The translations under genes were made by a program, and so were the position numbers. DNA of 64,000 bases from Dehalococcoidia bacterium (GTDB lineage: Bacteria > Chloroflexota > Dehalococcoidia > Bin125). The stretch lies in assembly GCA_965262235.1 (NCBI GenBank), contig OZ253504.1, positions 2,582,354 through 2,646,353 on the forward strand. The letters are read 5' to 3'. The notes beneath the pieces are model-generated. The model did no database searches. It worked only from the letters and a program-made list of their open reading frames with translations, and was not told where the DNA came from. Numbering within the stretch: the first letter of the stretch is position 1; every line of letters starts with the position of its first letter. Positions 18,168 through 43,481 of the stretch are shown in pieces.

Positions 18168-19502
18168 CTACTGCACGGACCGGATGCGCGGCGACAGCGC
18201 GGCCGTCGCGGCGGTGGCCGCGAGCAGACCGATCGCCATGCCAGCGACGGCCCAGCGGATGCCCAGCCCCTCGGCGAGGAGGCCGAGCACGAACGCGCCG
18301 AGCGACATCAGGCTGAACTGCATCATCAGCACCGACATCGCGCGCCCGCGGAACGCCGGCTCGGCGTGCTCCTGGATCAGCGTGGCCGAGACCGACATGC
18401 GCCCCGATTGGCCGACGCCCAACACGAGCATCAGCGCCAGTGAGAGCCAGAGCCAGGAGGAGACGGCGATGCCGAGCACGCCGAGGCCGAGCAGTGCGCT
18501 GAGGCCGAGCAGCAGCCAGCCGCGCCGACGCCGGGCCATGCCGGCGAGTCGCAATGAGGCGAGCAACGCTCCAGCGGCGGACACCATGCCGAATGCGCCG
18601 GCCAGGGCGGCGTCGGCGCCGAACACATCCTGCACGAAGCCCGGCAGCATCGGCTGAAACGGCATGCCCAGCGCGGAGACGACGAACGAGAGCAGCAGGA
18701 TCATCCGCAGCGTGCGATGTCCGGCCATGTAGCGGAAGCCAGCCGCCATGTCGGTCAGGGCTTCGCGAGGTCCGCCCACGCCGCCCGTCGCCTGCGCCGG
18801 GACGCGCGGCACCTTGAACATCGTTACGATCGCGATCAGGTAGCCGGCGGCCATCACGTAGAACGTGCCGCCCGCGCCAATGCTGTAGAGCAACAGCCCG
18901 CCGAGGCCGGGGCCGACGAACTGCATGATGTTCATCGCGGCGGCGGCGAGCGAGACGCCGTTCATCAGCCGCTCGCGGCTCACGATCTCGGAGACCATCG
19001 ACTGGCGCGCGGGCACCATCATCGCGACCAGCACGCCCTGGAAGACGGCCGAAGCGATCAGGTGCCAGAACTCAAGGACGCCCAGCACGGCCAGCGTGCC
19101 GATCGTGAGCGTGTTTGCCAGGCCGATGATCTGGAAGACCTGCGTGACCGTCTTCTTGGGGAAGCGGTCGGCCACGACCCCTCCGTAGGGCCCGAGCAGG
19201 AGCTGCGGCAGGGCGGAGCCGATCGCGACGACGCCGAGTGCGAAATACGAATCGGTGAGCTCGAAGACGAGGAACGAGCGGACGAAGATCTGCATGATCG
19301 CCGCGCCCATCTGCCCGAGCGTGGAGACGAAGAACCAGGCGAACGCGGGCTCGGAGAATGAGGCGAACGTGCGCGAGCGTCCGAACAAGGCGTGGAGCAG
19401 GGAGTTCTGCGACGCAGCTCCGTTGGGCGAGCGCTGGCCGGCCGATCGCGCGACCAGGTCGGGCTGCGGACGAGCAGGCGGGCGCTGCGGGGCGGGGGGC
19501 AC
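18168..19502 (-). CDS. MFS transporter
   Basis: About 12 predicted TM helices with the GPYGGVVADRFPKK MFS loop motif; 444 aa. Confidence 0.8.
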   Translation of the reverse strand: MPPAPQRPPARPQPDLVARSAGQRSPNGAASQNSLLHALFGRSRTFASFSEPAFAWFFVSTLGQMGAAIMQIFVRSFLVFELTDSYFALGVVAIGSALPQLLLGPYGGVVADRFPKKTVTQVFQIIGLANTLTIGTLAVLGVLEFWHLIASAVFQGVLVAMMVPARQSMVSEIVSRERLMNGVSLAAAAMNIMQFVGPGLGGLLLYSIGAGGTFYVMAAGYLIAIVTMFKVPRVPAQATGGVGGPREALTDMAAGFRYMAGHRTLRMILLLSFVVSALGMPFQPMLPGFVQDVFGADAALAGAFGMVSAAGALLASLRLAGMARRRRGWLLLGLSALLGLGVLGIAVSSWLWLSLALMLVLGVGQSGRMSVSATLIQEHAEPAFRGRAMSVLMMQFSLMSLGAFVLGLLAEGLGIRWAVAGMAIGLLAATAATAALSPRIRSVQ

Positions 19503-20350: not shown

Positions 20351-21127
20351 CTAGCCGCCGTAGACCCAGCCGGTGTAGAGCGACGTGAGCGGGCGGCCGA
20401 CGGCCGACTCCACCGCGCCGTCGACGACCCGCGAGAGGGCCAGCACGTGGCCGCCGACCGGGACGAACTGCTCGACCTCGCAGGCGATCCAGGAGAGCGC
20501 GTCGTCCAGGACCGGCGCGCCGCCGTCGAACAGCCGGTGCGCGACGCCGCGCATCTTGTCGGGCTTCTCATGGAGCGTGCTGCGACCCTTGATCTTGCTC
20601 GGGTCGGAGGGTTGTAGGAACGTGGCGGCGAGGTCCATGCCGGATTCGGGCAGGATGTTGACGGTCAGTTGGCGCGTCGCGCGCGCGTTCTTCAGCGATG
20701 TCGAGTCGCGCTCGAAGGCGATGCAGACGACGCGTGGATTGAACGAGACCTGCATCACCCAGTCGGCGACCATGACGTTCGGGTTGCCGTCCGCGGTGAC
20801 CGTTCCGATCACGTAGACGCCGTAGGGCAGGGAGTGGAGCGCTTCACGGATGCTGACATCCTGGCGCCGCTCGCGGCGGGTCAGCGCCGTCGTGTTGTTC
20901 GTCGGAATGATCGGTTCAACGGTCGGCGCGTCGGCCGCGAGCAGCAGTTCGACCGCGGCGTTGATTTCGAGCATTCGCTCGCCGGCGGCCTCGTCGTCGG
21001 GATTCTGGTCGGGGTGGAAGACACGCGCGAGGCGTCGGTAGCGGTCGCGGATCGCGCCCGCGTCGGCATCGATGCCGACCCCGAGCAGGTCCGCGGCTTC
21101 GGCCATCGAGTTGGGGATCGGCATCAA
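20351..21127 (-). CDS. J-domain (DnaJ-like) protein fused to a flavin-reductase-like FMN-binding domain
   Basis: N-terminal RDRYRRLARVFHPDQN (HPD motif), then GVYVIGTVTADGNPNVMVADWVMQVSFNPRVVCIAF (flavin reductase-like split barrel). Confidence 0.65.
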   Translation of the reverse strand: MMPIPNSMAEAADLLGVGIDADAGAIRDRYRRLARVFHPDQNPDDEAAGERMLEINAAVELLLAADAPTVEPIIPTNNTTALTRRERRQDVSIREALHSLPYGVYVIGTVTADGNPNVMVADWVMQVSFNPRVVCIAFERDSTSLKNARATRQLTVNILPESGMDLAATFLQPSDPSKIKGRSTLHEKPDKMRGVAHRLFDGGAPVLDDALSWIACEVEQFVPVGGHVLALSRVVDGAVESAVGRPLTSLYTGWVYGG

Positions 21128-21137
21128 TTTCGTCCGT

Positions 21138-23291
21138 TCAGTCGGCCGACCGCAGGTGGCGGTCGAAGTACTCGGCGAGTTTGCGTTCCTGGTATTCGAG
21201 GCCGGCGGCGTCGCGCGGCATGTGCCGCTCCTGGGGGAAGAGCAACAGGTCGTAGTCCTTGCCCGCGGCGGTCAGCGCCGTGATCAGCCGCGCGGTGTGG
21301 CGGAAGTGCACGTTCTCGTCGATTCCGCCGTGCACGAGCAGGAGCTGCCCCTGGAGTTTGTTGGCGTGCGTGAGCAGCGAGGCTTCGCGATAGCCCTCGG
21401 CGTTCGACTGCGGCGTGGCCATGTAGCGCTCGGTGTAGCCCGTGTCGTAGCCGTCCCAGTCGGAGACGGGCGCGCCGGCGACGCCGACGCGGAACAGGTC
21501 GGGCCGGCGCAGCATCGACATCACCGTCATATATCCGCCGTAGGACCAGCCGTAGACGCCGACTCGGCCAGGGTCGGCGTCGCCCGAGTCGGCGAGCTGC
21601 TGCACCGCGGCCGCCTGGTCGTCGACCTCGATCGTGCCCATCCGCTGGTGCAGATGCGCCTCGAACTGGAGCCCGCGGCCGGCCATCCCGCGGTTGTCGA
21701 GCTTGAGCACGAGGAAGCCCTGCTGGGCGAGGTATTGCGCGCGCATGTCGACTGTCAGCCCCCATGCGTCGAGCACGGTCTGGGCGTGCGGCCCGCCGTA
21801 GACGGCGACGAGTAGCGGCGCCGGGCCGTCGGCGGACGATTCGGGCGGGCGGTAGAGCGCGCCGTAGAGGTCGGAGCCATCGGCGGCGCGGAAGGTCCGA
21901 AGCAGCGGCGGCGCGAGGCCCAGTGACGGCGCCGTGACGTCCGGCTGCTCGTAAAGCATGGTCGCCGCTGAGCCATCGGTGCGCTGCACGCGGACGCAGG
22001 GGGCGCGTTCGAGCGATGAGCCGACGGTCGCGAGCCACTCGCCGTCACGCGACAGCACTCCGCCCTGCACTCCACCGGCTTCGCTCAACCGCTCAGGCTC
22101 GCCGCCAGCGAGCGGGACGCGATAGATGTGGCGTTGCAGGGGCGACTCGCGGGTCGCACCGAAGTAGATCAGGCCCCGTTCCTCGTCGACGCCGACCAGG
22201 TCCGTCACCATCCATTCGCCCTCGGTCAGCGTGCAGACGAGCGAGCCGTCGTCGCTGCGCAGCGAGAGGTGGCGGAAGCCGGAAGCTTCGCTGGCCCAGA
22301 GGAAACTGCCGTCGTCGAGCCCGCGGGCCTCATCGCCGATGTTGATCCAGGGCGACTGTTGCTCGTCGATCAAGGTTTCGGCTGCGCCGTCTGTGCTGTC
22401 TGTGCCGAACGCGATGAGGCGCAGACGGTCCTGCTTGCGGTTGAGCCATTGGGCGACGAGCCGGCCGGCCGGCGCACCGGGCTGCGGCCACCAGGCGACA
22501 CGCACCAGGTAGCCGTCCTCATCGGGCAGTTCGAGCCAGCGGATCGGGCCGCCGGCGGCGGGGACCACGCCGAGCTGCGCGGTGGCGTTGGCCGCTCCTG
22601 AGAAGGGATAGCGGTGGCGTTCGACCTCGGGCCGGTCCATGCCCTGGTGGACGATCGGGTACTCGGGGATGTGCCGCGAGTCGACGCGCACCAGCGCGAT
22701 CTGCTGCCCATCGCGGCTCCACCAGTGGCCGCGCAGCTGGCCGAACTCCTCCTGCGCGATGTAGTCGGCGAGGCCGAGCGTCAGGCCGTCCTCGGCCTCG
22801 TTGGTCAGGCGGGTCAGTTCGCCGCTCTCGCGGTCGAGCACGTGCAGATCGCCATCGCGTACGAACGAGACGCGGCCGCCATCGGGGCTGAGAGTGGGCT
22901 CGACCGCGGCTTCGGTGTCCCGCAGCTCTGCGGGGTCGCCGTCGCCCACGACGACTCGCAGGAGCGGGCCGCCGGGGATTAGCAGGACGGGCGGGTCGGC
23001 GTCGCGCGCCCACGAGTAGGACGTGACGCCGAGTTCGCGGGTGCGGGTGCGCTCGCGGCGCAGCTCTTCTTCGCGCGTCAGCTCGGCGGGGGCGTCGTCG
23101 GGGCCGACGAGGACGCTGCGTTCGCCGGTCTCGAGATCGACGCGCCAGAGCGACCGCACGAGGCTGCCCGACGCGCTGTGGAGCCAGGTCAAGGCGCTTC
23201 CGTCAGGCATGAAGCCGATGCCGGCGGGGCCGGCCATGCCGGGCCGCGGGTAGCTGGCGACCTGCGCGAGGGTGAGGCGCTGATTGGTCAC
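21138..23291 (-). CDS. S9 family serine peptidase (dipeptidyl-peptidase / prolyl oligopeptidase type)
   Basis: N-terminal beta-propeller-like region plus C-terminal alpha/beta hydrolase with GWSYGG nucleophile elbow; 717 aa. Confidence 0.85.
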   Translation of the reverse strand: MTNQRLTLAQVASYPRPGMAGPAGIGFMPDGSALTWLHSASGSLVRSLWRVDLETGERSVLVGPDDAPAELTREEELRRERTRTRELGVTSYSWARDADPPVLLIPGGPLLRVVVGDGDPAELRDTEAAVEPTLSPDGGRVSFVRDGDLHVLDRESGELTRLTNEAEDGLTLGLADYIAQEEFGQLRGHWWSRDGQQIALVRVDSRHIPEYPIVHQGMDRPEVERHRYPFSGAANATAQLGVVPAAGGPIRWLELPDEDGYLVRVAWWPQPGAPAGRLVAQWLNRKQDRLRLIAFGTDSTDGAAETLIDEQQSPWINIGDEARGLDDGSFLWASEASGFRHLSLRSDDGSLVCTLTEGEWMVTDLVGVDEERGLIYFGATRESPLQRHIYRVPLAGGEPERLSEAGGVQGGVLSRDGEWLATVGSSLERAPCVRVQRTDGSAATMLYEQPDVTAPSLGLAPPLLRTFRAADGSDLYGALYRPPESSADGPAPLLVAVYGGPHAQTVLDAWGLTVDMRAQYLAQQGFLVLKLDNRGMAGRGLQFEAHLHQRMGTIEVDDQAAAVQQLADSGDADPGRVGVYGWSYGGYMTVMSMLRRPDLFRVGVAGAPVSDWDGYDTGYTERYMATPQSNAEGYREASLLTHANKLQGQLLLVHGGIDENVHFRHTARLITALTAAGKDYDLLLFPQERHMPRDAAGLEYQERKLAEYFDRHLRSAD

Positions 23292-24709
23292 GCGGACAGC
23301 GCCTCGCGGCGGAGCGCTTCGATTTCGTCGGCGTCGCTGGGCAGGGCCGCGCTGAGCACCTCGCAGCCGTCGGCGGTGACCAGCACGTCGTCCTCGATGC
23401 GAATCCCGCCAAACTCAGCCTCGGAGCTGAGCAGCGCATCGATGCGGTCCCAGTTCGCCTGTTCGCGGTAACGTCGGCGGCGCTCGGGATCGGTCAGGAG
23501 CGCGGGGATGAAATAGATGCCCGGCTCGACGGTGACGACATAACCCGGCTCGAGCGGTAGGTCTGCGCGCAGGTAGGCGAGCCCGAATCGGTCTTCGGGA
23601 ACGCGGCCTTCGAGGTACCCGCCGCAGTCGTGAGTGGCCAGCCCGAGCATGTGCCCGAGGCCGTGAGGGAAGAAGAGGGCGTGTGCGTCGGATGCGACCA
23701 GGTCGCCGGCTGCGCCGACCAGAATGCCGGCGTCGACGAGGCCCTCAGCGATGGTCTGGGAGGCCTGGAGGTGGAGCTGCTTGTATTCGACGCCCGGCCG
23801 CAGCGCGTTGATCGCCGCTCGTTGCGCGGTCAGCACCACGTCGTAGAGGTGGCGCTGGAGCGGTGTGAACGCTGCGGCGACGGGGAAGGTGCGGGAGACA
23901 TCGCTGGCGTAGCCGTGTACCTCGGGGCCGGCGTCGATCAGGACGAGCTCGCCGTCGTTGAGAACGCGATCGCCCGGCGTTCCATGCAGGATCGCAGAGT
24001 TGGGCCCGCTGCCGACGATTGACCCGTAGGCGGTGCGCTGCCCGCCGAAGCGGAAGAACTCGGCCTCCAATTCGATCTGCACGGCTCGCTCGGTCAGCCC
24101 GGCACGGGCGAATCGCCAGGCGCGCAGGTGGCCCTCAACGGCGGCGTCGACGGCGCGGCGCATGTGCGAGAGTTCGAGTGCATCCTTGGCACGCCGACGC
24201 TCGGCGAGCGCCTTGCCGACGCGCTCGGTTGCGCCGTCGTCCACGACCACTTCAAGCGCCGACCAATTCTCGACGCCGTACTCGGCGCCGCGCTGCTCGA
24301 TGTCGCGGTTGCCGAGCAGGGCCAGCGGGAGGCCGCGGCGTGCGTTGAGCCAAGCGCCGAGCGCTGAGAAGTCGTCGGTCTCGATTCCCGTGCGCTCCGC
24401 CTGTTGGTCGGCAGTGGGCGGCTCGCTCATCCAGACGCGGTCGTCGATCGAGAGCGAGGGCGTGAACAGCCGCCAGCCAGCATCGGCCTCCCAGACCAGC
24501 GTGGCGCCGGGCTCAGCGACACCGCTGAGGTACTGAAACTCGGGGTGAGCGTGGAAGTCGTGGAACTGGTCGGTGCCGTCGATTGGGATCGGGACGCCGG
24601 CGGCGGCCACGACTGGGCCAGGTTTGCCTGCAGGGCCGGAGAGGCCGCGCCAGGCGTCTTCAACGCGCGCGCGGCGGGCCTGCAGAGCGTCGGCAGGATT
24701 GGCGGTCAT
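23288..24709 (-). CDS. pepP: Xaa-Pro aminopeptidase (M24B)
   Basis: HGLGHMLGLATHD and VTVEPGIY metal-ligand motifs; 4-bp overlap with the downstream S9 peptidase gene. Confidence 0.85.
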   Translation of the reverse strand: MTANPADALQARRARVEDAWRGLSGPAGKPGPVVAAAGVPIPIDGTDQFHDFHAHPEFQYLSGVAEPGATLVWEADAGWRLFTPSLSIDDRVWMSEPPTADQQAERTGIETDDFSALGAWLNARRGLPLALLGNRDIEQRGAEYGVENWSALEVVVDDGATERVGKALAERRRAKDALELSHMRRAVDAAVEGHLRAWRFARAGLTERAVQIELEAEFFRFGGQRTAYGSIVGSGPNSAILHGTPGDRVLNDGELVLIDAGPEVHGYASDVSRTFPVAAAFTPLQRHLYDVVLTAQRAAINALRPGVEYKQLHLQASQTIAEGLVDAGILVGAAGDLVASDAHALFFPHGLGHMLGLATHDCGGYLEGRVPEDRFGLAYLRADLPLEPGYVVTVEPGIYFIPALLTDPERRRRYREQANWDRIDALLSSEAEFGGIRIEDDVLVTADGCEVLSAALPSDADEIEALRREALSA

Positions 24710-24730: not shown

Positions 24731-26695
24731 TCAGGTCTCGACGGCGACCACCTCAACGAGCAGCTGCCCCTCTTCGACCGTCGCCCCGGCTTCGCAGCGG
24801 ACCGAGGCGACGCGCCCACCGGCGAGCGCCGGCAGCAGGTGCTCCATCTTCATCGCCTCGAGCACGACCAGCGTCTGACCGGCCTCGACGAGATCGCCCT
24901 CGGCGACGAGCACCGCCGCGATCGTGCCCGGCATCGGCGCGTGGACCGCGTTGGAGCCGCCCGCGCGTCGCCGCGTCCCGGCGGAGCGGTCGCGTTCGGC
25001 GGTCGTGAAGGCCCATGAGCGCTCGCCGTGGCCGACGATCACACCCCATCGGGAGCGTTGTGTCGACCACGATTGGCGACTCCGGGCGATGCTGAGTTCG
25101 AGCCCATCCGCCGTGCGGTGAGCGTTGACGGTGGTGTTTGCGCCGCCGTCGACGCTCGCCTCCCACGTGGCGTTCGCACCCACGACGCGTTGCAGGGTGA
25201 CGGTGTGCTCGCTGCCATGCAGCGCCAGCCGCGCGGTGGTGTCGCCGGACGAGCGCCAGCCGCCGGTCGCGCCCTCGATGCGCGGCAGCGCGGCATCGAG
25301 CGCCGCCGCGATGAGCGCTGCGTTCGGCGTGTCGCGCGGCCCGAGCTCGGTGCGCTCCAGCCAGCCGACATCAACGCCGCCGGAGCGAAAATCGTCGGAG
25401 CTGAGGATGCCGACAAGCTGGTTGACGTTGGTGCGCAGGCCGGCGATCGCCGTGCCTTCGAGCGCCGCGACCGAGCGCGTCAGCGCTTCCTCGCGATCGG
25501 CGCCGTGCGCGATCACCTTGCCGAGCAGCGGGTCGTAGTGCGGCGTGACTGCGGAGCCCGCTGCGACGCCGAGATCGTTGCGCACGCCGGCCGCGCTTGA
25601 GGGCGCGAACCAGGTCAGCCGACCGATCGAGGGGAGGTAGTCGCGGGTTGGGTCCTCGGCGTAGACGCGCGACTCGATGGCGTGGCCCTGCCAGTGAATC
25701 TCGGTCTGCGAGATCGGCAGTTCCTCGCCCATCGCGATGCGTAGCTGCAGCTCGACCAGGTCGAGGCCCGTGACGGCCTCGGTGACAGGATGCTCGACCT
25801 GCAGGCGGGTGTTGACCTCGAGGAAGACGAACTCGTTGTCGGGCAGCAGCAGGAACTCAACCGTGCCCGCATTCTGGTAACCCGCCGCGCCGATGATCGC
25901 GAGGGCGGCCTCGCCGAGGCGGTGGCGCAGGTCGTCGTCGACGCCCGGCGCCGGCGCCTCTTCGATGACCTTCTGGCGGCGGCGCTGCACGGAGCAGTCG
26001 CGCTCGCCGAGATGGACGGCGTTGCCGAATCGGTCGGCGAGGACCTGCACCTCGACGTGGCGGCCGTCAACGATCGCCCGTTCGACGAGCAGGCGGCCGT
26101 CTCCGAAGGCCGACTCGGCTTCGCGGCGCGCGGATGCGATGGTCTCCACCAGGTCGTCGGGCGCTTCGGTCAGCAGCCGCATGCCGCGCCCGCCGCCGCC
26201 GGCGGCTGCCTTGAGCATCACGGGGTAGCCGAGCTGCCCGATCGCCGCGGCCAACGCTTCGTCGCCCTCGTCCTGCTCGATCCCGTCTGCAACGGGGACG
26301 CCCGCTGCGACCGCGAGCTGCCGGGCCTGCGCCTTGTCGCCGAGCTGCGACATCACGTCGGCCGGGGGGCCGATCCAGACCAGGCCGGCGTTGGCGCAGG
26401 CGCGCGCGAACTCGGCGTTCTCCGAGAGAAAGCCGTAGCCGGGGTGCACCGCATCGGCGCCCGAGCGCGCCGCGGCGTCGAGCAGCGCGGGGATGTTGAG
26501 ATAACTCTGAGCAGCGGGCGCCGCGCCGATCGGGATCGCGGCGTCTGCTGCGCGCACGTGCAGGGCCCCGCGGTCGGCGTCGGAGTAGACCGCGATCGAG
26601 TGCACGCCGAGTTCGCGGCAGGTGCGCGCGATCCGGACGGCGATCTCGCCGCGGTTGGCGATCAGCACGGCGCGGGGCAGCAGCGTGTTGGGCAT
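24731..26695 (-). CDS. acyl-CoA carboxylase alpha subunit (biotin carboxylase + biotin carboxyl carrier domains)
   Basis: N-terminal AVLIANRGEIAVRIARTCRELG biotin carboxylase signature; C-terminal VLEAMKMEH biotinylation motif; 654 aa. Confidence 0.85.
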   Translation of the reverse strand: MPNTLLPRAVLIANRGEIAVRIARTCRELGVHSIAVYSDADRGALHVRAADAAIPIGAAPAAQSYLNIPALLDAAARSGADAVHPGYGFLSENAEFARACANAGLVWIGPPADVMSQLGDKAQARQLAVAAGVPVADGIEQDEGDEALAAAIGQLGYPVMLKAAAGGGGRGMRLLTEAPDDLVETIASARREAESAFGDGRLLVERAIVDGRHVEVQVLADRFGNAVHLGERDCSVQRRRQKVIEEAPAPGVDDDLRHRLGEAALAIIGAAGYQNAGTVEFLLLPDNEFVFLEVNTRLQVEHPVTEAVTGLDLVELQLRIAMGEELPISQTEIHWQGHAIESRVYAEDPTRDYLPSIGRLTWFAPSSAAGVRNDLGVAAGSAVTPHYDPLLGKVIAHGADREEALTRSVAALEGTAIAGLRTNVNQLVGILSSDDFRSGGVDVGWLERTELGPRDTPNAALIAAALDAALPRIEGATGGWRSSGDTTARLALHGSEHTVTLQRVVGANATWEASVDGGANTTVNAHRTADGLELSIARSRQSWSTQRSRWGVIVGHGERSWAFTTAERDRSAGTRRRAGGSNAVHAPMPGTIAAVLVAEGDLVEAGQTLVVLEAMKMEHLLPALAGGRVASVRCEAGATVEEGQLLVEVVAVET

Positions 26696-26723
26696 GGCGC
26701 GAGTCTAGACTCGCGCCATGCCC
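26690..26723. promoter_or_regulatory. 34-bp perfect palindrome spanning both divergent start codons (candidate shared operator)
   Basis: gggcatggcgcgagtctagactcgcgccatgccc equals its own reverse complement. It contains the CAT (minus-strand ATG) of the carboxylase gene and the ATG of the PurO-like gene. Confidence 0.5.
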
Positions 26724-27464
26724 GATCGTCTTCTCGACCTCGCGCAGCGGAACTTCCGGCAACACCTCGCCGAGAATTCGTACCCGGGGCGGGGGATAGT
26801 GATCGGTCGGCTGGAGAGCGGCGACTGGATTCAGCTGTACTGGATCATGGGCCGCAGCGCGAACAGCAGGAACCGCAAGCTGGTGTCGAGCGAGGGCGAG
26901 CTTCGTACCGAGCCGCTCGACGCGGCGCTCGCGGAAGATCCGACCAACATCATCTACGAGGCGATGCTCGAGGCGCCGGACGTGTTCGTGGTCTCGAACG
27001 GTGACCAGACGCGCACGATCCTCAATGCGCTGGCGCACGGTGATCGGTTCGAGGACGCGCTGGCGACGCGCGAGCGCGAGGACGACGCGCCCAACTACAC
27101 ACCGCGCATCGCCGGGCTGATCGACCTACGCGGCCGGACGCACCAGCTGCCCGCACAGCTCAGCCTCGCGATCCTGCGCGCGAGCGACGCGGACGCCGGC
27201 GAGACCGACCGGACGATCTATCGGCCGGCATTGCCGCCGCCGGGGCTTGGCCAGGGGCTCACGACGTACGCCGGAGATGGCAGCCCCCTGCCGCCATTCC
27301 GCGGCGACCCGCTGTGGTTACCAATGGTCGGGAATGTTCAGGCGATCCTTGACACGTATTGGCAGGCGCTCGACGCGAACAATCGAATCGCGCTGGCGGC
27401 GAAGCAGATACCGACCGACGGGGGCGAGACCCAAATTCACCTCCGCGGCTCTGGAGCGGAGTAG
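26718..27464 (+). CDS. PurO-like (archaeal-type) IMP cyclohydrolase homolog
   Basis: YPGRGIVIGRLESGDWIQLYWIMGRSANSRNR and VFVVSNGDQTRTI...NYTPRIAG align by memory with the PurO pattern Y.GR...GR..G....RSFPNR / VVSNG..T.TI...NTPRIA. Confidence 0.5.
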   Translation: MPDRLLDLAQRNFRQHLAENSYPGRGIVIGRLESGDWIQLYWIMGRSANSRNRKLVSSEGELRTEPLDAALAEDPTNIIYEAMLEAPDVFVVSNGDQTRTILNALAHGDRFEDALATREREDDAPNYTPRIAGLIDLRGRTHQLPAQLSLAILRASDADAGETDRTIYRPALPPPGLGQGLTTYAGDGSPLPPFRGDPLWLPMVGNVQAILDTYWQALDANNRIALAAKQIPTDGGETQIHLRGSGAE

Positions 27465-27469
27465 GCGGC

Positions 27470-29881
27470 ATGGCCGAGCATGAGGGCGCGCTGTCGGGGC
27501 TGACGGTGGTGCAGATCGGCTCAGGGCTCGACTCGGCCTACGCCGCGAAACTGCTCTCGGACCTGGGCGCGCGGCTGATCGTCGTCGAGCCACCCGATGG
27601 CGCGCCGCTGCGGACGCGTCCGCCGGTCGCCGACGGGGCGGGGCACGGGGCGATCTGGGCGCACCTCGCCTCGGGTGCGGAGTCGGTGGTTCCGGCCGAT
27701 CGCCAGGATGCCCGGCGAATTCTGCGCTCGTTGCTCGCTCATGCCGATGTGCTGCTGACGGATGGGACATCGCAGTCGCAGCAGGACCTGCCGACCGCGC
27801 CGCACGCGCGGCTGATCACTGCCGACCTATCGGCCTGGGGACGGTCGGGGCCGTACGCGGAGTGGCGTGAGAGCGACATCGCGACCTGGGCGATGGGCGG
27901 CTACATGTATTTCACGGGTGAGCCCGACCGCGAGCCGCTGATCATCCCGGGCAGCCAGAGCGCGATCCACGCGGGCGTGCATTGCGCGCTCGCTGTGCTT
28001 GCGGCGGTGCGCGAGCGTCGCCGCTCGGGGCACGGCCAGCAGATCGAGCTGTCGCAGCTCGAGGCGAATCTGTCAGCGCATGCGTGGCTGGTCTCGTCGT
28101 GGACCGCCAGCGGGCAGGCGCTGCTGCGCACGGGGCATGACTTCACCAGGACGCGCGACGGCTGGGCGCATTTCATGCAGATGGTGCCCAACCCGAACGT
28201 CTTCCTGCTGATCGACCAGCCGGAGCGGATGGACGAGGTGATCGCCAACGACATCGACACGTGGCGGCGGGCAGTGGCGGGCGTGTACCGCGAGGTGGAG
28301 GCCTGGGCGCAGGACGTTGATTCAGAGGAGGTGGCGACCCGCGCGCAGGAGCTGCGAGTGGCCTGCACGCCGATGCTCGATGCGGCCGGGCTGGATCGAA
28401 ATCCTCAGCTCGCGGCGCGGGGCTGGTGGGAGACGGATTTGGACGCCGAGCTCGGGGAGCTGCGGTTCCCGGGCCCGGCGTACCAGCTCTCGCGAACGCC
28501 CGCGCATCGAGGCGGCCCCGCGCCGCAGCTCGGCGAGCACAGCGCGGCGATTCGGGAGGAGTTCGTGGGGCGAGCCGCGCCGCCTGCGCCGAGCGCGATG
28601 CCGACCGATGCCGGGCCGCTGGAGGGGCTGACTGTCGTTGAGCTGACCTCGAACTGGGCCGGGCCGATCGCCGGACGCCACCTGGGCGACCTCGGCGCGA
28701 ATGTGATCAAGCTGGAGTGGGCGGCGCGTCCCGCGACGCGCGCGTTGTTCATGCCGGGGCCGACGCAGGACCCGCAGCGCTATCCCTATGACCGCGCGAT
28801 GTACTTCAATCTGCTCAATCGCAACAAGCGGGATGTGATCGTGGATCTGGCGACCGAGCAGGGGCGCGAGGTGTTCAGGGCGCTGATCGCGCGCGCCGAC
28901 GTGTTCATCGAGAACAACAGCGCGCGCGTGATGCCGAACCTTGGCCTGGGCTACGACGCGATGAGCGAGGTCAACCCGCGGCTGATTTACGTGTCGATGT
29001 CGGGCTTCGGCGCGACCGGCCCGTGGCGCGACTGGAGCGCGTACGGGTCGAACATCGAGGCGTCGTCGGGCCTGGCGTCGGTGACGGGCTACGACGAGTC
29101 GCAGGTCTATCGCACGCCGGTGTTCTACGCCGACCCGGTGGCGGGCAATCACGCGGCGGTGGCGATTCTGGCGGCGCTGGAGGAGCGTGAGCGCTCGGGG
29201 CTGGGGCAGTTCATCGATGTCGCGCTGAACGAAGCGGGCGCCTGCCACTTCCTCGAGATGCTGCTCGACTATCAGGCGACGGGCACGATCCGGCGGCCGA
29301 ACGGCAACCGCGACGAGCGATTCGCGCCGCAGGGCGCCTATCGCTGCGCGGGTGATGACTGCTGGATCGGCCTGGCGGTGCAGAGCGACGAGGAGTGGCC
29401 GCTGCTCGCGGAAGCGATCGGTCGCCAGGACCTGGCGGACGATCTGGAGCTGGCGACGCTCGCCGGTCGCCAGGGGCGACACGACGAGCTGGATGCGGCG
29501 ATCCACACCTGGACGCAGGGATACGAGCAATACGAGGCGGCGTGGATCCTGCAGCGGGCCGGCGTCTCGGCCGCGCCGGTGCTGGCCAACTGGCAGGTGC
29601 TGGCCGACCCGCATCTGTTTCATCGCGGGTTCTACGTGCCGATCGAGCATCCCGTGGTAGGGGTCTACCCGTTCCCCTCGTGGCCCTGGCGCTTTTCGCG
29701 GACGCCGGCGCGGGTGAGGCGCGCGGCGCCGCGGTTCGCCGAGCACAACCGGGAGGTTCTGTCGGAGATCGGCTTGTCGGAGCAGCAGATCCAGCAGCTC
29801 TACGACGAGGGGATCACATCCGATGCGCCCACGGCCCCGACGCTGGTCGTCCGTTCGGGCCTGTCGGCGCCCGACGACTAA
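27470..29881 (+). CDS. tandem two-domain family III CoA-transferase (CaiB/BaiF x2 fusion)
   Basis: LTVVQIGSGLDSAYAAKLLSDLGARLIVVEPP and LTVVELTSNWAGPIAGRHLGDLGANVIKLEW signatures. Start trimmed to MAEHEG (track ORF starts at 27359). Confidence 0.8.
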   Translation: MAEHEGALSGLTVVQIGSGLDSAYAAKLLSDLGARLIVVEPPDGAPLRTRPPVADGAGHGAIWAHLASGAESVVPADRQDARRILRSLLAHADVLLTDGTSQSQQDLPTAPHARLITADLSAWGRSGPYAEWRESDIATWAMGGYMYFTGEPDREPLIIPGSQSAIHAGVHCALAVLAAVRERRRSGHGQQIELSQLEANLSAHAWLVSSWTASGQALLRTGHDFTRTRDGWAHFMQMVPNPNVFLLIDQPERMDEVIANDIDTWRRAVAGVYREVEAWAQDVDSEEVATRAQELRVACTPMLDAAGLDRNPQLAARGWWETDLDAELGELRFPGPAYQLSRTPAHRGGPAPQLGEHSAAIREEFVGRAAPPAPSAMPTDAGPLEGLTVVELTSNWAGPIAGRHLGDLGANVIKLEWAARPATRALFMPGPTQDPQRYPYDRAMYFNLLNRNKRDVIVDLATEQGREVFRALIARADVFIENNSARVMPNLGLGYDAMSEVNPRLIYVSMSGFGATGPWRDWSAYGSNIEASSGLASVTGYDESQVYRTPVFYADPVAGNHAAVAILAALEERERSGLGQFIDVALNEAGACHFLEMLLDYQATGTIRRPNGNRDERFAPQGAYRCAGDDCWIGLAVQSDEEWPLLAEAIGRQDLADDLELATLAGRQGRHDELDAAIHTWTQGYEQYEAAWILQRAGVSAAPVLANWQVLADPHLFHRGFYVPIEHPVVGVYPFPSWPWRFSRTPARVRRAAPRFAEHNREVLSEIGLSEQQIQQLYDEGITSDAPTAPTLVVRSGLSAPDD

Positions 29882-32126: not shown

Positions 32127-33173
32127 TCATCTCGGTGGTCCGAGCATCTCGAAAAACTCTGATTCGGAGATCACATCGATCTTGTGGCCCTCGGCGATCA
32201 GCTCGTCGGCGCGGAGTCGATCACGCTGGGCCGGCCCTTGCGCACCGTGTTCGATCGTATGGTCCGCGACGATCAGGAGGGTCGTCTCCTCGCTGAGCGC
32301 GGAACTGACCGTCAGCCCGGCGCGCCGGGCGACGATCTGCAGTGCGGCCGGCGCGACCAGCGACGAGCAGCTGACGACGACTGTCTCATCGTAGCGGCGG
32401 CGCTTCAGTCGCCGCAGCCGTCGCTTACGGGTCTTGCGTGGCTTGGCCGGGGTGGGTGGCGTGGCTGGGACGTCGGCTTTCGCGCGCTGCGGGCGCGCGG
32501 TGGGCTTGGTCGGCTCAGCGGGCTTGGTGGCCTGGGTGCGCTTGGCGGGCTTGGTGGATTTGGCGGGCTTCGATCGTGGCGCGGGGGTGCTGCCGGGCGC
32601 TGCTGGTGCGGGCGCACGAGTGGGCGCACGAGCGGGCGCACGCTCGAGCTCGATGATCGGTTCGATCGTCCGCGCGCCGGTTTTGCGCATCGCGGCGAGG
32701 ATCACGTGACCGGCGGCCTTTGCGTCGGCGAGCGCGTCGTGGTGGGCGAAGCGGTAGCCGATCATTCGGCAGACCTCTGCGAGGCCGTAGCCGTCGCGGG
32801 AGCGATGCGGCCAGGTTCGGCGCGTGACCAGCGCGGAATCGAGCCAGCGCCAGCTCGGCGGCGGCAGGTTGGCTCGCGCCGCCGCCTGCGAGATCGCCGA
32901 GCGGTCGAACTGCGTGTGATGCACGACGACGCTGTCGGCGACGAACTCGTTGAGGCGCGGGAGCGCCTCTGCGAAGCGCGGCGCCCTCGCCACCTTGTCG
33001 CGGTCGATCCCGTGGATGCCGACGTTGACCGCGGCGAAGTAGTCCTGCGGATCGACCAGGGTGTAGAACTCGTCGACGATCGCGCCGCGCTCGAAGCGCG
33101 CCGCGCCGATCGAGCAGATCGACGCGTAGTCGGAGTTGGCTGTCTCGACATCGAGCGCGACGAACGAGCTCAT
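32127..33173 (-). CDS. DEDDh 3'-5' exonuclease with Pro/Lys-rich linker and C-terminal BRCT domain
   Basis: N-terminal FVALDVETAN...HHDALADA exonuclease motifs. Low-complexity PAPA/KPAK linker, then BRCT-like segment ETVVVSCSSLVAPAALQIVARRAGLTV...LLIVADH. Confidence 0.75.
   Translation of the reverse strand: MSSFVALDVETANSDYASICSIGAARFERGAIVDEFYTLVDPQDYFAAVNVGIHGIDRDKVARAPRFAEALPRLNEFVADSVVVHHTQFDRSAISQAAARANLPPPSWRWLDSALVTRRTWPHRSRDGYGLAEVCRMIGYRFAHHDALADAKAAGHVILAAMRKTGARTIEPIIELERAPARAPTRAPAPAAPGSTPAPRSKPAKSTKPAKRTQATKPAEPTKPTARPQRAKADVPATPPTPAKPRKTRKRRLRRLKRRRYDETVVVSCSSLVAPAALQIVARRAGLTVSSALSEETTLLIVADHTIEHGAQGPAQRDRLRADELIAEGHKIDVISESEFFEMLGPPR
32434..32650. repeat. degenerate short tandem repeats inside the exonuclease linker coding region
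   Basis: Repeated gcgggcttggtgg and gggcgcacgag units encoding the PKPA-rich linker. Confidence 0.7.
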
Positions 33174-33175
33174 GG

Positions 33176-35728
33176 TTAGCCGCCAGCGGCAAAGGCCTGA
33201 CAGGCGCGGGCGCGGCGCAACTCGTCGAGCGCCTCGCGCAGGTTGCGGGCGAGCAGCAGATCGCCGTCGCCGAGCTGTTCAAGCAGGTTAGCCGAGCGGT
33301 TGACGACCTCGTCGATCGCGACGTGGCCGGGGTAGAGCGCGCCGAACCAGCGCGTCGCGTACTCCTTGTCGCGTTCGGCGAACACGCCACGCACCTCCTC
33401 GAAGAAGCGGCCGACGTAGGGCTGTAGCAGCGCATCCTGAGGCTTCCACCAGAAGCCGTGCATTGCGGCGCCGAGGATGTGCAGCGAGGCCTCGCGGTCC
33501 TCGCGGAAGCGTGACCAGGCCGCTGTCTTGATCGCGGCGTCGGCGCGCGAGGCGCGCACGGTCTCAGCGGCGCGCTGGCCGCGGTCGGAGCCGTCGCGCT
33601 CCAGTTCTGGAGCGAGCCGTTCGAAGCCTCCCTGCATGTCGTAGGCGACCGACTTGGTCACCAAACTCCAGCGCATGTCCTGGTCGAGCTCGAAGCCTTC
33701 GATGTCGACGCCGTCGTCGGCGAGCGCGAGCAACCGCTGGATTCGCTCGGGCTCCTGCGCCGAGCCGATCAGGATGCGCGCCCAGACGATCCGGAAGTCC
33801 GCGTCAGCGGTCGAGAAGAGCCCATCCCAGGCGAGGTCGAAGAGTTGGGCCGCGCGATCGAGCCGCTGCGATTCGGGCAGGTAGCGACCGATCGCGTAGA
33901 GCGCGTGGTTGGCGATGGTCTGCATGATCTCGAGCGTGCCCTCGCTGCCGAGCTTGTCGGCCGCGAGCGCGACGAAGTCACCGGCGGAGAACTGCTGGTC
34001 GCGCACCATGTCCCACAGGGTGTGCCAGAAGAGCAGGCGCTCGAACGGCGCGTCGAAGCGATCGATCTGTTCCTGCACGAACGACAGCGAGCGGTCGTCG
34101 AGCGCGATCTTGGCAAACGCGTGGTCGCCGTGGTTGGGGAAGACGGCGGCCGGCGCGCTGATCCCGACGAGGCCCTCGACGACGGTTTCGGGACCGTCGA
34201 GGTCGACCGGCACGGCGTCGCGCAGCACCGGGCCGTCGTCGCCGGCGTCGTAGATCGCCACCTCGGTCCGGTGCGGACGGAGGTCGGTGTGCTCCGCCGG
34301 TGCGGTCTGGACCATGGTGAAGGAGTTCACTTCGCCGTCGACGACGCTGTAGTTGGCGGCCAGGGTGTTGACGCCGGCGCGTTCGAGCCACAGTTCCGAC
34401 CAGCGGCCCAGCTCGCGGCCGGAGCCTCGCTCGAGCGCGGCGAGGAAGTCGGCCAGGGTCGTGTTGCCCCAGGCGTGGGTCTGGAAGTAGTCCCGCATGC
34501 CGTCGCGGAAGCCCTCGGCGCCGAGGAAGGCGACGAGCTGCTTGAGCACCGCAGCGCCCTTGCCGTAGGTGATCCCGTCGAAGTTCAGGAACGTGGCGTC
34601 GGTGTCGGGCACGTCGCCGGCGATCGGGTGGGTGGTGGGGAGCTGGTCCTGCTCGTAGGCCCAGGCCTTCATCCGCGCGTGGAAGGCCGACCAGGCGGAC
34701 GACTCGAAGCGCGTGGCCTGCTCCATCGAGAGGTAGGCCATGTAGGTCGCAAACGACTCGTTGAGCCAGAGGTCATTCCACCACTGCATCGTGACGAGGT
34801 CGCCGAACCACATGTGGGCCATCTCGTGCAGCACGACCTCGGCGCGGTTGAGCCGCTGGATGTCGGTCGGCGGGTCGCGGAAGATCATCCGCTCCGAGTA
34901 GGTGATACAGCCGACGTTCTCCATCGCGCCCATGTTGAACTCGGGCACGAAGACCTGGTCGTACTTGTCGAATGGGTAGCGGAAGTCGAAGAAGTCGGAG
35001 TAGAAGGTCAGGCCCTGGCGGGTGACCTCGAAGAACTCGTCGGCATCGAAGTACTCGGCCAGCGAGGAGCGGCAGCAGACGCCGAGCGGCGTGTCTTCCC
35101 AGCGGTCGTCGAAGCGCACGTAGGGACCCGCCGCGAGCGCGAGCAGGTAGGTGCTGAAGCGCGGGGTGGTCACGAAGCGACGCCGCGTGCGTTCGCCGGC
35201 ATCGACTGACTCCGTCTCGGCGACCGGGTAGTTGGCGATCACCTCCCAGGCGCTGGGAGCGGTGACGGTCAGGTCGTAGGTCCCCTTGAGGTCGGGCTGG
35301 TCGAAGCAGGGCAGCAGACGGTGGGCGTCGTAGGGCTCGAAGTGGGTGTAGAGGTATTCGGCGCCGTCCTGTGGATCGATAAACTGATGCAGTCCTGCGC
35401 CGATGTGGTCGTAGTCGTTGGTGTAGTGGACGCGCACCTCGTTGGCAGCGGCCAGATCGGCGCCGTCGAGATAGAGACGGTTGCGCTCATGCCGCGCGGC
35501 CCGCTGGACGCCGTTGACGGTCAGCGAGTGGATCTCGCGACCCGTGAAGTCGAGGAATGCGCCCGCGGCGGGAGCGGCGTGGCTGAAGCGGATCGCGGCT
35601 TCGGCGTCGTAGGTCTCGGAGCCGGCGGTCAGGGAGAGGGTGAGGTCGTAGGCGACGTCCGAGATCGCCGCGGCCCGGTCTTCCGCCTCGTTCTGCGTCA
35701 AGACATTGGGGCCCGCTAGTTCGGCCAT
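33176..35728 (-). CDS. pepN: aminopeptidase N (M1 family)
   Basis: GAMEN motif and HEMAHMWFGDLVT...E zinc-binding motif; 850 aa. Confidence 0.9.
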   Translation of the reverse strand: MAELAGPNVLTQNEAEDRAAAISDVAYDLTLSLTAGSETYDAEAAIRFSHAAPAAGAFLDFTGREIHSLTVNGVQRAARHERNRLYLDGADLAAANEVRVHYTNDYDHIGAGLHQFIDPQDGAEYLYTHFEPYDAHRLLPCFDQPDLKGTYDLTVTAPSAWEVIANYPVAETESVDAGERTRRRFVTTPRFSTYLLALAAGPYVRFDDRWEDTPLGVCCRSSLAEYFDADEFFEVTRQGLTFYSDFFDFRYPFDKYDQVFVPEFNMGAMENVGCITYSERMIFRDPPTDIQRLNRAEVVLHEMAHMWFGDLVTMQWWNDLWLNESFATYMAYLSMEQATRFESSAWSAFHARMKAWAYEQDQLPTTHPIAGDVPDTDATFLNFDGITYGKGAAVLKQLVAFLGAEGFRDGMRDYFQTHAWGNTTLADFLAALERGSGRELGRWSELWLERAGVNTLAANYSVVDGEVNSFTMVQTAPAEHTDLRPHRTEVAIYDAGDDGPVLRDAVPVDLDGPETVVEGLVGISAPAAVFPNHGDHAFAKIALDDRSLSFVQEQIDRFDAPFERLLFWHTLWDMVRDQQFSAGDFVALAADKLGSEGTLEIMQTIANHALYAIGRYLPESQRLDRAAQLFDLAWDGLFSTADADFRIVWARILIGSAQEPERIQRLLALADDGVDIEGFELDQDMRWSLVTKSVAYDMQGGFERLAPELERDGSDRGQRAAETVRASRADAAIKTAAWSRFREDREASLHILGAAMHGFWWKPQDALLQPYVGRFFEEVRGVFAERDKEYATRWFGALYPGHVAIDEVVNRSANLLEQLGDGDLLLARNLREALDELRRARACQAFAAGG

Positions 35729-41926: not shown

Positions 41927-42811
41927 GTGCGCATCGCGCGAATCGGCGGCCGTCGGGTCGCGTATGAAACGTATGGCGACCCGCGCGGCCAACCCGTCCT
42001 GATCATTCACGGCGCCTGGGGCGGGCCGTCGTCCAGCCTGTGGAACGGGCCGCGCCTGCGTTGGTCAGCGCCCACCGATGGTCTGCGCCTGATCTGGTAC
42101 GACCGCCGGTGCGCCGGTCTCTCGCAGTACGACACGCAGCCGTTCGCACTCGAGGACCTGGCATACGATGCCGTCGAGGTTCTCGACTACCTGCAGATTG
42201 AACGGGCCGCGGTCATCGCGACTTCCGCAGGTGGTCCGATCGGCATGAGATTGGCGCTCGGTCATCCGGACCGGGTCTCAGCCCTGGTGCTGCTCAACAC
42301 GGGCGCGGCGTTGATGTCGTTGAATCCAACGGGAGTCAATCTCGACGACCCGTTCGTCGCTGATCGGCTCGAGACGGTCGCCAGGCGCATCGGGCTGTTG
42401 AAACTCATGGAATCCAAGGGCGTCGAGGCGGCGATTCAGCAATCCGAAGAGGAGTGGCGAACGCCGCCGGAGCCGGAGAGCGCGGATCCAGAGCTGGCTG
42501 CGTTTCGAGCGAATCGTCTGCGTGCCCTGAGCCGGTTGTCGCAAAGCGAGCTGGTGCGGCTGGGGCGAGGAGCCTTGCTGAACATGCAGGCGCAGCGGGG
42601 CATTGACCTTGCTGATCGACTGCACGGGATCAACTGTCCGACTCTGATCGTCCACGGAGATGCCGACACGACCGTGCCCATCGACTTCGGACGCGCCACG
42701 GCTGAGCGGATCTCAGGAGCCGAACTCGCCATTCTCCATGCCGCTGGCCACGGTCTGATCGCTCATGCCCAAGCGCAGTCCATGCTGGCAAAGTGGTTGT
42801 TGGGAGTCTAG
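41927..42811 (+). CDS. alpha/beta hydrolase
   Basis: VLIIHGAWGG, ATSAGG nucleophile elbow, C-terminal HGDADTTVP...AGH. Confidence 0.75.
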   Translation: MRIARIGGRRVAYETYGDPRGQPVLIIHGAWGGPSSSLWNGPRLRWSAPTDGLRLIWYDRRCAGLSQYDTQPFALEDLAYDAVEVLDYLQIERAAVIATSAGGPIGMRLALGHPDRVSALVLLNTGAALMSLNPTGVNLDDPFVADRLETVARRIGLLKLMESKGVEAAIQQSEEEWRTPPEPESADPELAAFRANRLRALSRLSQSELVRLGRGALLNMQAQRGIDLADRLHGINCPTLIVHGDADTTVPIDFGRATAERISGAELAILHAAGHGLIAHAQAQSMLAKWLLGV

Positions 42812-42820
42812 AATCGGGAC

Positions 42821-43039
42821 ATGACCACGACAGAGCCCAGTCCGGCAACCTCGCAGATCAGCGAACGCGCCCGCCAGCGCGGAGTCGAGTTGTGGAGCGG
42901 CGAAGAACTGGTCGACATGCTGGACAAGATCTGCGAAGGCATGACTCAGGAAGAGCGCGAAGCGCTGGCCGACGAATTGGACCCCAAATGGCGCGACGAT
43001 GGCGGGCCTGAGTGGCGAACGGCGGACGATTTCAGTTGA
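42821..43039 (+). CDS. small hypothetical protein, possible antitoxin of the downstream PIN gene
   Basis: 72-aa acidic ORF immediately upstream of and overlapping the PIN gene. Confidence 0.35.
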   Translation: MTTTEPSPATSQISERARQRGVELWSGEELVDMLDKICEGMTQEEREALADELDPKWRDDGGPEWRTADDFS

Positions 43040-43481
43040 TACCAATGTGCTCAGCGCCATAGTGGGGCGGAGCGATGTCGGGGGCGCCTACCGAGATTTG
43101 TTGCGAAACTTCAGCGCGGTGGTGACGTATTTTGTGCGCGCTGAAATACAGGTGATCGACTGGCGACCAGCGGCATGGGACATCCTTGCAGTCTTTCTCA
43201 AAGATGATAATGCGTTTGACCCGCCAGGCTATGATGTGATCGAAGAGTATGTGCAGCTCAAACGGACAGCCATTGCGCTTGGCTTGCGCTATGGCGCAGA
43301 GCGGGAAGATCTCTGGATGCTGGCCCAGACTCGTAGCGTACAGCTGCCGGTGATGACTCACGATCGCAACGCCGCTCGCGTAGCACGGGCGGTTGGAATG
43401 CCAGTGGTGACCGCGTTATCCGACATCGAGGCGGACTACGCCCGTGATCGCGGGAGATTGGCGAGAACTCGATCGCGCTAA
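42999..43481 (+). CDS. PIN-domain ribonuclease (VapC-like toxin)
   Basis: ISVDTNVLSAIV N-terminus and EDLWMLAQTRSVQLPVMTHDRNAARVA C-terminus. Paralogous to the PIN ORF at 555-1043. Confidence 0.6.
   Translation: MAGLSGERRTISVDTNVLSAIVGRSDVGGAYRDLLRNFSAVVTYFVRAEIQVIDWRPAAWDILAVFLKDDNAFDPPGYDVIEEYVQLKRTAIALGLRYGAEREDLWMLAQTRSVQLPVMTHDRNAARVARAVGMPVVTALSDIEADYARDRGRLARTRSR

Follow-up and report, generated by a model that had tools for sequence, protein, structure and literature searches.

A perfect palindrome over two divergent start codons in uncultured Dehalococcoidia: a probable bidirectional leaderless promoter with co-varying arms

The divergent carboxylase/PurO-like locus

The DNA analysed here is a 64,000-nucleotide stretch (the window) from a Dehalococcoidia bacterium of the phylum Chloroflexota (GenBank assembly GCA_965262235.1, contig OZ253504.1, positions 2,582,354 to 2,646,353 of the forward strand), and the element in question is a 34-bp exact palindrome between two divergent genes. 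On the minus strand, positions 24731..26695 encode a 654-aa protein with biotin carboxylase, BT (MCC-alpha-like) and biotinyl carrier (BCCP) domains, which begins MPNTLL..., while positions 26718..27464 of the plus strand encode a 248-aa protein with an IMP_cyclohyd domain (PF07826, PurO-like), which begins MPDRLL.... The palindrome, GGGCATGGCGCGAGTCTAGACTCGCGCCATGCCC, lies at 26690..26723 and is assigned to neither strand; it equals its own reverse complement and consists of two 17-nt arms without a spacer, centred between 26706 and 26707. It comprises two -10 hexamers, two 6-nt spacers, both start codons (the carboxylase ATG, read as CAT on the plus strand, at 26693..26695, and the PurO-like ATG at 26718..26720) and codon 2 (CCC, Pro) of each gene. 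A first-pass annotation of the same DNA had described a perfect palindrome of this length over both start codons and had ascribed the Met-Pro beginning of both proteins to it, and each of these points was borne out, the arms being 100% complementary.

The palindrome is far beyond chance. Within the 64-kb window, no further match was found with up to 3 mismatches tolerated, the runner-up perfect palindrome is 20 nt long, and none of 100 dinucleotide-preserving shuffles gave a palindrome match; the chance of a 17-pair perfect palindrome in 64 kb at ~70% GC was estimated by us at roughly 5e-5. The same palindrome was recovered in independent assemblies from different samples and is thus not an assembly artefact. 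The closest genomes are metagenome-assembled genomes of uncultured Dehalococcoidia with chromosomes of ~3 Mb, and the GC content is ~61-71% in the window and ~70% around the locus.

Both start assignments are firm. In each reading frame, the -10 hexamer contributes an in-frame TAG 12 nt before the start codon, and neither open reading frame (ORF) can therefore be extended. All 25 of the 25 aligned PurO-like homologues share the same start position, and conserved residues would be lost if translation of either gene began at the following in-frame start codon. The carboxylase of the window lacks an alternative ATG at codon 4; most orthologues have one, all of them outside the window's own lineage.

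Two overlapping -10 hexamers

The centre of the palindrome, AGTCTAGACT, is made of two sigma-70-type -10 hexamers of the form TANNNT (TAGACT in both cases) on opposite strands, which have the central TA in common. The hexamer of the PurO-like gene occupies 26706..26711 (+), with its last T 7 nt before the A of the ATG at 26718, and that of the carboxylase gene occupies 26702..26707 (-; AGTCTA on the plus strand), the shared TA being 26706-26707. Each is followed by a 6-nt spacer or discriminator, CGCGCC at 26712..26717 (+) and its mirror image at 26696..26701 (-; GGCGCG on the plus strand), the latter lying between the minus-strand hexamer and the predicted transcription start at 26695.

It was reported that a TANNNT motif ~12 bp upstream of the start codon is a signal of leaderless genes, which make up ~4.7% of genes in the Chloroflexi genomes where it was detected (PMC3160421). 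At the present locus, the first T of a TANNNT lies 12 nt upstream of the ATG on both strands, and the 22-bp inter-start sequence GGCGCGAGTCTAGACTCGCGCC contains no Shine-Dalgarno motif (GGAG, GAGG or AGGA). Given a TANNNT 6 nt before each ATG and no Shine-Dalgarno motif, transcripts in both directions most probably begin at the A of the ATG (26718 on the plus strand and 26695 on the minus strand) and would thus be leaderless and free of any hairpin formed by the whole palindrome.

It has also been reported that many bacterial promoters are bidirectional, that their opposite-strand -10 elements coincide with key positions paired, and that the divergent start sites lie 7-25 bp apart, most commonly 18 bp and also 10 and 23 bp (Grainger and colleagues; PMC12825309, bioRxiv 10.1101/2020.01.31.928960). 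The key positions are reciprocally paired here as well, T-12 of each promoter with A-11 of the other, which is kept in all 14 orthologous sequences described below, and the distance between the predicted starts at 26695 and 26718 is 23 bp, which would place the element in the 23-bp class. From this arrangement, the palindrome is likely to be a minimal bidirectional core promoter yielding two leaderless mRNAs. Briefly, RNA polymerase would dock on the shared TA core in either orientation, and the two footprints would overlap completely, so that one binding event should exclude the other; transcription would then begin with the A of the respective ATG, 7 nt beyond the hexamer, and both messages, beginning with AUG, would be translated without a Shine-Dalgarno sequence.

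Compared with the bidirectional promoters of Warman, Grainger and colleagues, the likeness lies in the paired opposite-strand -10 elements between divergent genes, whereas those promoters are pseudo-symmetrical over the -10 region only, and mostly yield RNAs that are leadered or do not code for protein; at the present locus, exact symmetry extends over 34-42 bp, including the start codons and the codons that follow, and both products are predicted leaderless mRNAs. The element also resembles the leaderless promoters of Actinobacteria, Deinococcus-Thermus and some Chloroflexi, in which the first T of TANNNT stands 12 nt before an ATG or GTG start and no Shine-Dalgarno sequence is present; unlike those, two such promoters are fused here back to back through the shared TA as mirror images.

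The leaderless signal elsewhere in the lineage

The spacing between hexamer and start was surveyed in the window and seven close relatives (~210 kb), by counting TANNNT motifs followed by an ATG or GTG that opens a long ORF with high third-position GC. A spacing of 6 nt gave 28 matches, and every other spacing from 0 to 14 gave only 0-5. A peak at spacing 15 (11 matches) was rejected as a second enrichment, being traced mostly to the carboxylase's own second in-frame ATG. Twelve of the 28 spacing-6 matches lie at other genes, namely those of an MFS transporter, an M24 peptidase and a DNA methyltransferase, and are kept across genomes. Among the coding frames of the window, 3 of 55 carry TANNNT at -12, in agreement with the ~4.7% published for Chloroflexi, and 38 of 55 have a Shine-Dalgarno-like motif near the candidate start.

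Several of these signals belong to identifiable genes. The MFS transporter gene of the window (18168-19502, -) is preceded by the leaderless-type signal TAACGT-TGGGCA-GTG, which is kept in the related loci L008 and L009. For the M24 peptidase gene (23288-24709, -), the 21-nt gap that follows the carboxylase stop codon holds TACACT, 7 nt and an ATG, and the orthologues have this same hexamer at a spacing of 6 or 7; transcription of the peptidase gene is probably separate from that of the carboxylase gene and driven by a leaderless-type promoter of its own. A search for further copies of the palindrome half-site, which the first-pass annotation had proposed, returned a single near-copy in the window, at 42804 with 1 mismatch, and this reads TAGAAT-N6-ATG before a 72-aa ORF followed by a PIN-domain gene. 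In that region (42809-43481, +), the 72-aa ORF starts with the ATG at 42821, has no Pfam match and overlaps the 160-aa PIN-domain gene (42999-43481); the pair looks like a VapBC-type toxin-antitoxin system, of which the antitoxin mRNA would be leaderless.

Conservation across orthologous loci

No exact match to the window's PurO-like protein is on record among public assemblies, and the orthologous loci were reached through a homologue search. The arrangement CAT-N6-AGTYTAGACT-N6-ATG is kept at every divergent carboxylase/PurO-like locus recovered, comprising 14 distinct sequences from uncultured Dehalococcoidia with 62-95% pairwise identity of the concatenated proteins. The core CGAGTYTAGACTC and the plus-strand hexamer of the PurO-like gene are invariant in all 14, and the main variable positions are the 4 nt before each ATG, that is, the last four bases of each spacer, which co-vary with their mirror positions. 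Since this architecture is kept at all the orthologous loci and not at the PurO loci of more distant Dehalococcoidia, where the back-to-back -10 element is absent, the conserved feature is a pair of back-to-back -10 hexamers at a fixed distance from two start codons.

With regard to the symmetry itself, the orthologues fall into two groups. In the perfect group, which consists of six sequences in three deep lineages with 68-77% protein identity, the palindrome is perfect throughout, with a length of 34 bp in the window, 38 bp in L001, 34 bp in L008, 38 bp in L009, 42 bp in L002 and 36 bp in L003. In the imperfect sister group (L166, L168, L164, L011/L028 and L004/L013/L005), the promoter architecture is kept and 4-7 mismatches occur within the 17 pairs. 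Most of its members have T.G at the second pair from the centre, which turns the carboxylase hexamer into TAAACT (TAGACT is retained in L166), and the mismatches, which include A.C, G.G and T.C, show no preference for G.U on either strand. A common residue 2 in both proteins was considered as a property of all orthologues and was rejected, as it failed in L164, L166 and L168; perfect symmetry is thus confined to one part of the tree.

Covariation of the two arms

When mirror pairs are numbered outward from the centre (pair 1 being 26706 with 26707), all 17 of the 17 pairs are paired in every member of the perfect group (n=6); 14 of them are invariant, three are changed on both sides, and none is changed on one side. 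The three are pair 9 (C-G, with A-T in L002), pair 11 (G-C, with A-T in L003) and pair 15 (G-C, with A-T in L001, L008 and L009). Pair 15 sits in codon 2 of both genes, so that both proteins switch together from Met-Pro to Met-Ser. The covariation score of this group was reached by 2 of 500 shuffles. Over 11 sequences, five pairs are changed on both sides, among them pair 10, which flips from G-C to C-G, and the score was reached by none of 500 shuffles; when the partner is slid by 1-3 columns, pairing falls from 90% to 23-44%. These complementary two-sided changes point to pairing between the arms and not to contacts of a dimeric protein.

The covariation extends into the coding sequences, and the two proteins share the N-terminus MP in the window, MSD in L001, MSN in L009 and MPE in L002. 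Just beyond the 34-bp palindrome, the near-identical genomes of the window's own group differ at pair 18: the window and L008 have T.G (carboxylase Asn3, PurO-like Asp3), L001 has C-G (Asp3 in both proteins) and L009 has T-A (Asn3 in both). It appears that the same mismatch was resolved in opposite directions, each change being non-synonymous and making the proteins alike, as arm-to-arm copying predicts.

The symmetry goes beyond the needs of two promoters. It has been reported that template switching perfects, maintains and lengthens inverted repeats and gives compensatory changes in one step (PMC5941160, PMC8794818), and the corresponding traits, i.e., perfect arms across orthologues, complementary two-sided changes and arm ends that vary between 34 and 42 bp, are all found at this locus. 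Intrastrand pairing would allow template switching at the quasi-palindrome during replication or repair, and such copying would erase a new mutation or transfer it to the mirror position, would lengthen the arms into both coding regions, and would make codons 2-4 of two unrelated proteins change together. Such copying would explain why all pairs are of Watson-Crick type, why the arms end at different points, why pair 18 was resolved in opposite directions and how the symmetry could spread into N-terminal codons that are under weak constraint. As a way of keeping the arms exactly complementary, it would be the simplest. Arm-to-arm copying by template switching as the cause of the symmetry is given a little less than an even chance, and selection for equal promoter or initiation strength in both directions may add to it. 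The locus resembles known template-switch-maintained inverted repeats in its perfect conserved arms, its two-sided changes of Watson-Crick type only and its lineage-dependent arm length; it differs from them in that the arms carry promoter elements and the 5′ ends of two genes, so that copying would homogenise two unrelated N-termini.

A further-reaching and more speculative proposal, which is regarded as rather unlikely, is that the palindrome is a self-correcting, actively maintained element. Intrastrand pairing would keep ~17-21 bp per side identical, giving identical core-promoter, initiation and 5′-mRNA sequences and hence a 1:1, mutually exclusive expression switch, perhaps gated by cruciform extrusion under transcription-generated supercoiling; the N-termini would be forced to co-evolve (MP/MP, MSD/MSD, MSN/MSN, MPE/MPE). 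As part of this proposal, the additional ATG at the carboxylase N-terminus, which stands 9 nt before the Met4 codon present in most orthologues, may have arisen when the PurO-like promoter and start were copied in inverted orientation.

Weighing the interpretation

For the combined statement, namely a bidirectional leaderless promoter whose arms are kept alike by arm-to-arm copying, a probability of about 0.6 is put forward. Several points weigh against it. Leaderless initiation at both ATGs is deduced from the DNA of an uncultured lineage, and neither side of the locus shows a convincing -35 element. The lack of a -35 element is usual for TANNNT-type promoters of GC-rich bacteria, and a scan with Escherichia coli-type promoter and terminator consensus sequences found nothing at the site, its TTGACA/TATAAT-like consensus being uninformative for TANNNT promoters. 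In addition, neutral copying alone leaves unexplained the slow evolution of the arms in the perfect group, where lineages with 68-77% protein identity differ at only 1-2 of the 7 free pairs, and the 4-7 mismatches of the sister group at a similar depth. Slow perfect arms beside a decayed sister group make an extra constraint in the perfect group likely, candidates being a bound protein or regulator, a selected cruciform, or balanced expression or initiation strength.

Alternative explanations

The first-pass annotation had read the palindrome either as a shared operator for a dimeric regulator or as an RNA hairpin over both start sites. The idea of a shared, symmetric control element over both translation starts has held up, and neither of the two mechanisms is favoured; the operator survives as a minority possibility. 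In this explanation, a dimeric or tetrameric regulator would bind on both overlapping promoters and control both genes, which could coexist with bidirectional promoter activity, and we regard it as doubtful. A site of 34 bp with perfect dyad symmetry about the two -10 hexamers would suit such a protein, as would the slower evolution of the perfect-group arms relative to the equivalent positions of the sister group, which suggests extra constraint; moreover, the bidirectional bioA/bioB and acrA/acrR promoters of E. coli are, according to published work, controlled through a shared region. On the other hand, protein contacts do not predict the complementary changes on both sides, and arm variation was found to be correlated (three two-sided pairs in the perfect group and five over 11 sequences) where an operator would show uncorrelated variation with conserved half-sites. 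The symmetry also enters both coding sequences by amounts that differ among species, from 34 to 42 bp, and even 34 bp is long for one dimer. No second copy of the palindrome or of its 12-nt core exists in the window or at any related locus (~225 kb from close relatives).

Nor was a gene for a cognate regulator found nearby: a scan of genes up to ~8 kb to each side turned up no helix-turn-helix or other regulator gene, and the genes covered between 16.8 and 35.7 kb, which include those of patatin, MFS, Uma2, DnaJ-flavin reductase, DPP-IV-type peptidase, M24 peptidase, MOSC, RNase T and M1 peptidase proteins, gave no match to a DNA-binding regulator domain. Shared palindromic operators such as bioO/BirA at E. 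coli bioA-bioB and those of the TetR family likewise place a long inverted repeat over both -10 regions of a divergent pair; the present element differs from them in that no such regulator gene was found nearby, in that it has no testable likeness in sequence to a known operator, and in having arms that co-vary instead of conserved half-sites.

A selected DNA hairpin or cruciform is judged unlikely, and less probable than the operator. In this case, the negative supercoiling that builds up between diverging polymerases would drive the palindrome into a cruciform, masking both -10 elements and subjecting both genes to supercoiling-dependent feedback. Each strand can indeed form a DNA hairpin of 16 pairs (-22.1 kcal/mol, z-score -6.3), the AT-richest part, TCTAGA, is at the centre, and the perfect group evolves like a stem, slowly and with two-sided changes only. 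The proposal is purely inferential, however, and the sister group functions with 4-7 mismatches, so that a cruciform is not needed for expression; furthermore, 34 bp is near the lower limit for cruciform extrusion in vivo, which also counts against it.

The RNA hairpin of the first-pass annotation, which would form in leadered transcripts begun inside the opposite gene and occlude each start codon, is very improbable. The annotation had called for RNA folding, and folding confirmed that the region, if transcribed, gives a stem of 18 pairs (-38.4 kcal/mol) with the AUG inside it; the covariation would also support pairing. With a TANNNT 6 nt before each ATG, however, the predicted start sites leave the hairpin outside the transcript, and the 22 bp between the starts have no Shine-Dalgarno motif. 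The best-conserved part, the -10 hexamers, would form the hairpin tip, which should be the least constrained, and the sister-group mismatches lack the G.U bias on either strand that an RNA stem would favour. A stem this strong over the AUG would simply block initiation, and an Rfam scan gave no family match, the best being a chance hit to sbcD RNA (E=0.7, 17 bits where 40 are required).

A generic repeated palindromic element (similar to repetitive extragenic palindromes or miniature inverted-repeat transposable elements), a terminator or an assembly artefact is effectively refuted: although a 16-nt core of the palindrome occurs in 76 metagenome contigs, the element is single-copy in the window, in each related locus and in each of those contigs, its orthologous position between the same two genes is fixed in 14 sequences, the flanking genes diverge with neither a T-tract nor a terminator-like site present, and independent assemblies contain it.

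Copies of the core in metagenomes

The 16-nt core GCGAGTCTAGACTCGC was found in the JGI metagenome collection on 76 contigs, one copy each and beside unrelated genes, a count that is within the chance range and is not read as enrichment, the base total of the collection not being given. The many unrelated copies that, according to the first-pass annotation, would mark a generic repeat were not seen in the window, at the related loci or within any one of these contigs. In GC-rich contigs, divergent ORFs often flank the 16-nt core, which then precedes their start codons by 11-17 nt; one such pair is an alanyl-tRNA-synthetase-like gene (by its N-terminal sequence) and its divergent neighbour.

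One of these loci, L105, carries at 3999-4026 the sequence CAC-GGCGCGAGTCTAGACTCGCGCC-GTG, a 28-bp perfect palindrome with both GTG start codons at the same spacing as the window's ATGs. It lies on the JGI contig Ga0070741_10000074 (356 kb, 73% GC), between a class I methyltransferase gene and a divergent alpha/beta hydrolase gene; its 22-bp inter-start sequence is identical to that of the window, and its flanking genes are unrelated to those of the window. A tblastx comparison of L105 with all recovered loci gave weak, uninformative hits only. L105 is an independent instance of the same design and not a member of a repeat family. Other perfect palindromes, of 86, 58 and 48 bp, surround GCGAGTCTAGACTCGC in L096/L112, L158 and L103/L157, respectively; these are on unrelated contigs, some of low GC, and the palindrome arms in L103/L157 also hold CAT...ATG.

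Neighbouring genes and annotation

The gene for an 803-aa family III CoA-transferase (27470..29881, +) begins 5 nt past the PurO-like gene, with which it is probably co-transcribed; the domain is matched in two stretches, and similar gene calls exist at the orthologous loci. In distant Dehalococcoidia (L006, 1826-6768), the PurO gene comes directly after the AICAR formyltransferase gene in the same direction, which is a purine-synthesis context. RNase T and M1 peptidase genes lie downstream of PurO both in these distant Dehalococcoidia and in the window (32127-35728). In the window's clade, the divergent carboxylase gene stands in place of the formyltransferase gene, and a double CoA-transferase is inserted downstream of the PurO-like gene; in this clade, the PurO-like protein may work with another partner or have another function. 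The carboxylase gene has no adjoining carboxyltransferase gene. Elsewhere in the window (20351-21127, -), an N-terminal DnaJ (J) domain and a flavin reductase-like domain occur in one ORF, an uncommon pairing.

The 12-nt core GAGTCTAGACTC (window 26701-26712) contains two GANTC motifs (HinfI/CcrM-type) flanking the shared TA, and an XbaI site. A gene with N6_N4_Mtase and Mrr_cat domains lies ~3 kb downstream in L004 and L005, and L012, L013 and L028 have it at the equivalent position, as judged from sequence identity. A BirA/bioO-type operator and a GANTC-methylation switch (core GAGTC, GACTC) were considered as candidates, and no tool-based support was found for either.

Some other observations concern gene calling at the orthologous loci. 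The carboxylase start was set at the second ATG in L004 and L005, and a spurious 1036-aa plus-strand ORF was called across the carboxylase gene in L168 (1-3041). In L002 (a contig of 2.3x coverage; 1013-1690), the carboxylase was called only as a 225-aa C-terminal fragment, and a 643-aa frame is open from the palindrome ATG. The lesson for annotation is that automatic gene callers misplace starts of this kind.

Significance

The kind of element, a bidirectional core promoter, is already known, and the unusual part is that the arms are exactly matched across species. Three phenomena that have been described separately, namely bidirectional promoters with -10 symmetry, leaderless mRNAs and the maintenance of perfect inverted repeats by template switching, would be joined at one locus in a poorly studied, uncultured lineage of Chloroflexota. 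The locus offers a testable system for the question whether exact promoter symmetry gives balanced, mutually exclusive divergent expression. If the interpretation is true, ~28 bp would hold all core transcription and translation start signals of two genes, which is a very compact natural design, and the covariation that reaches into two coding regions would mean that DNA-level copying, or selection on DNA symmetry, dictates the N-termini of two proteins in these bacteria.

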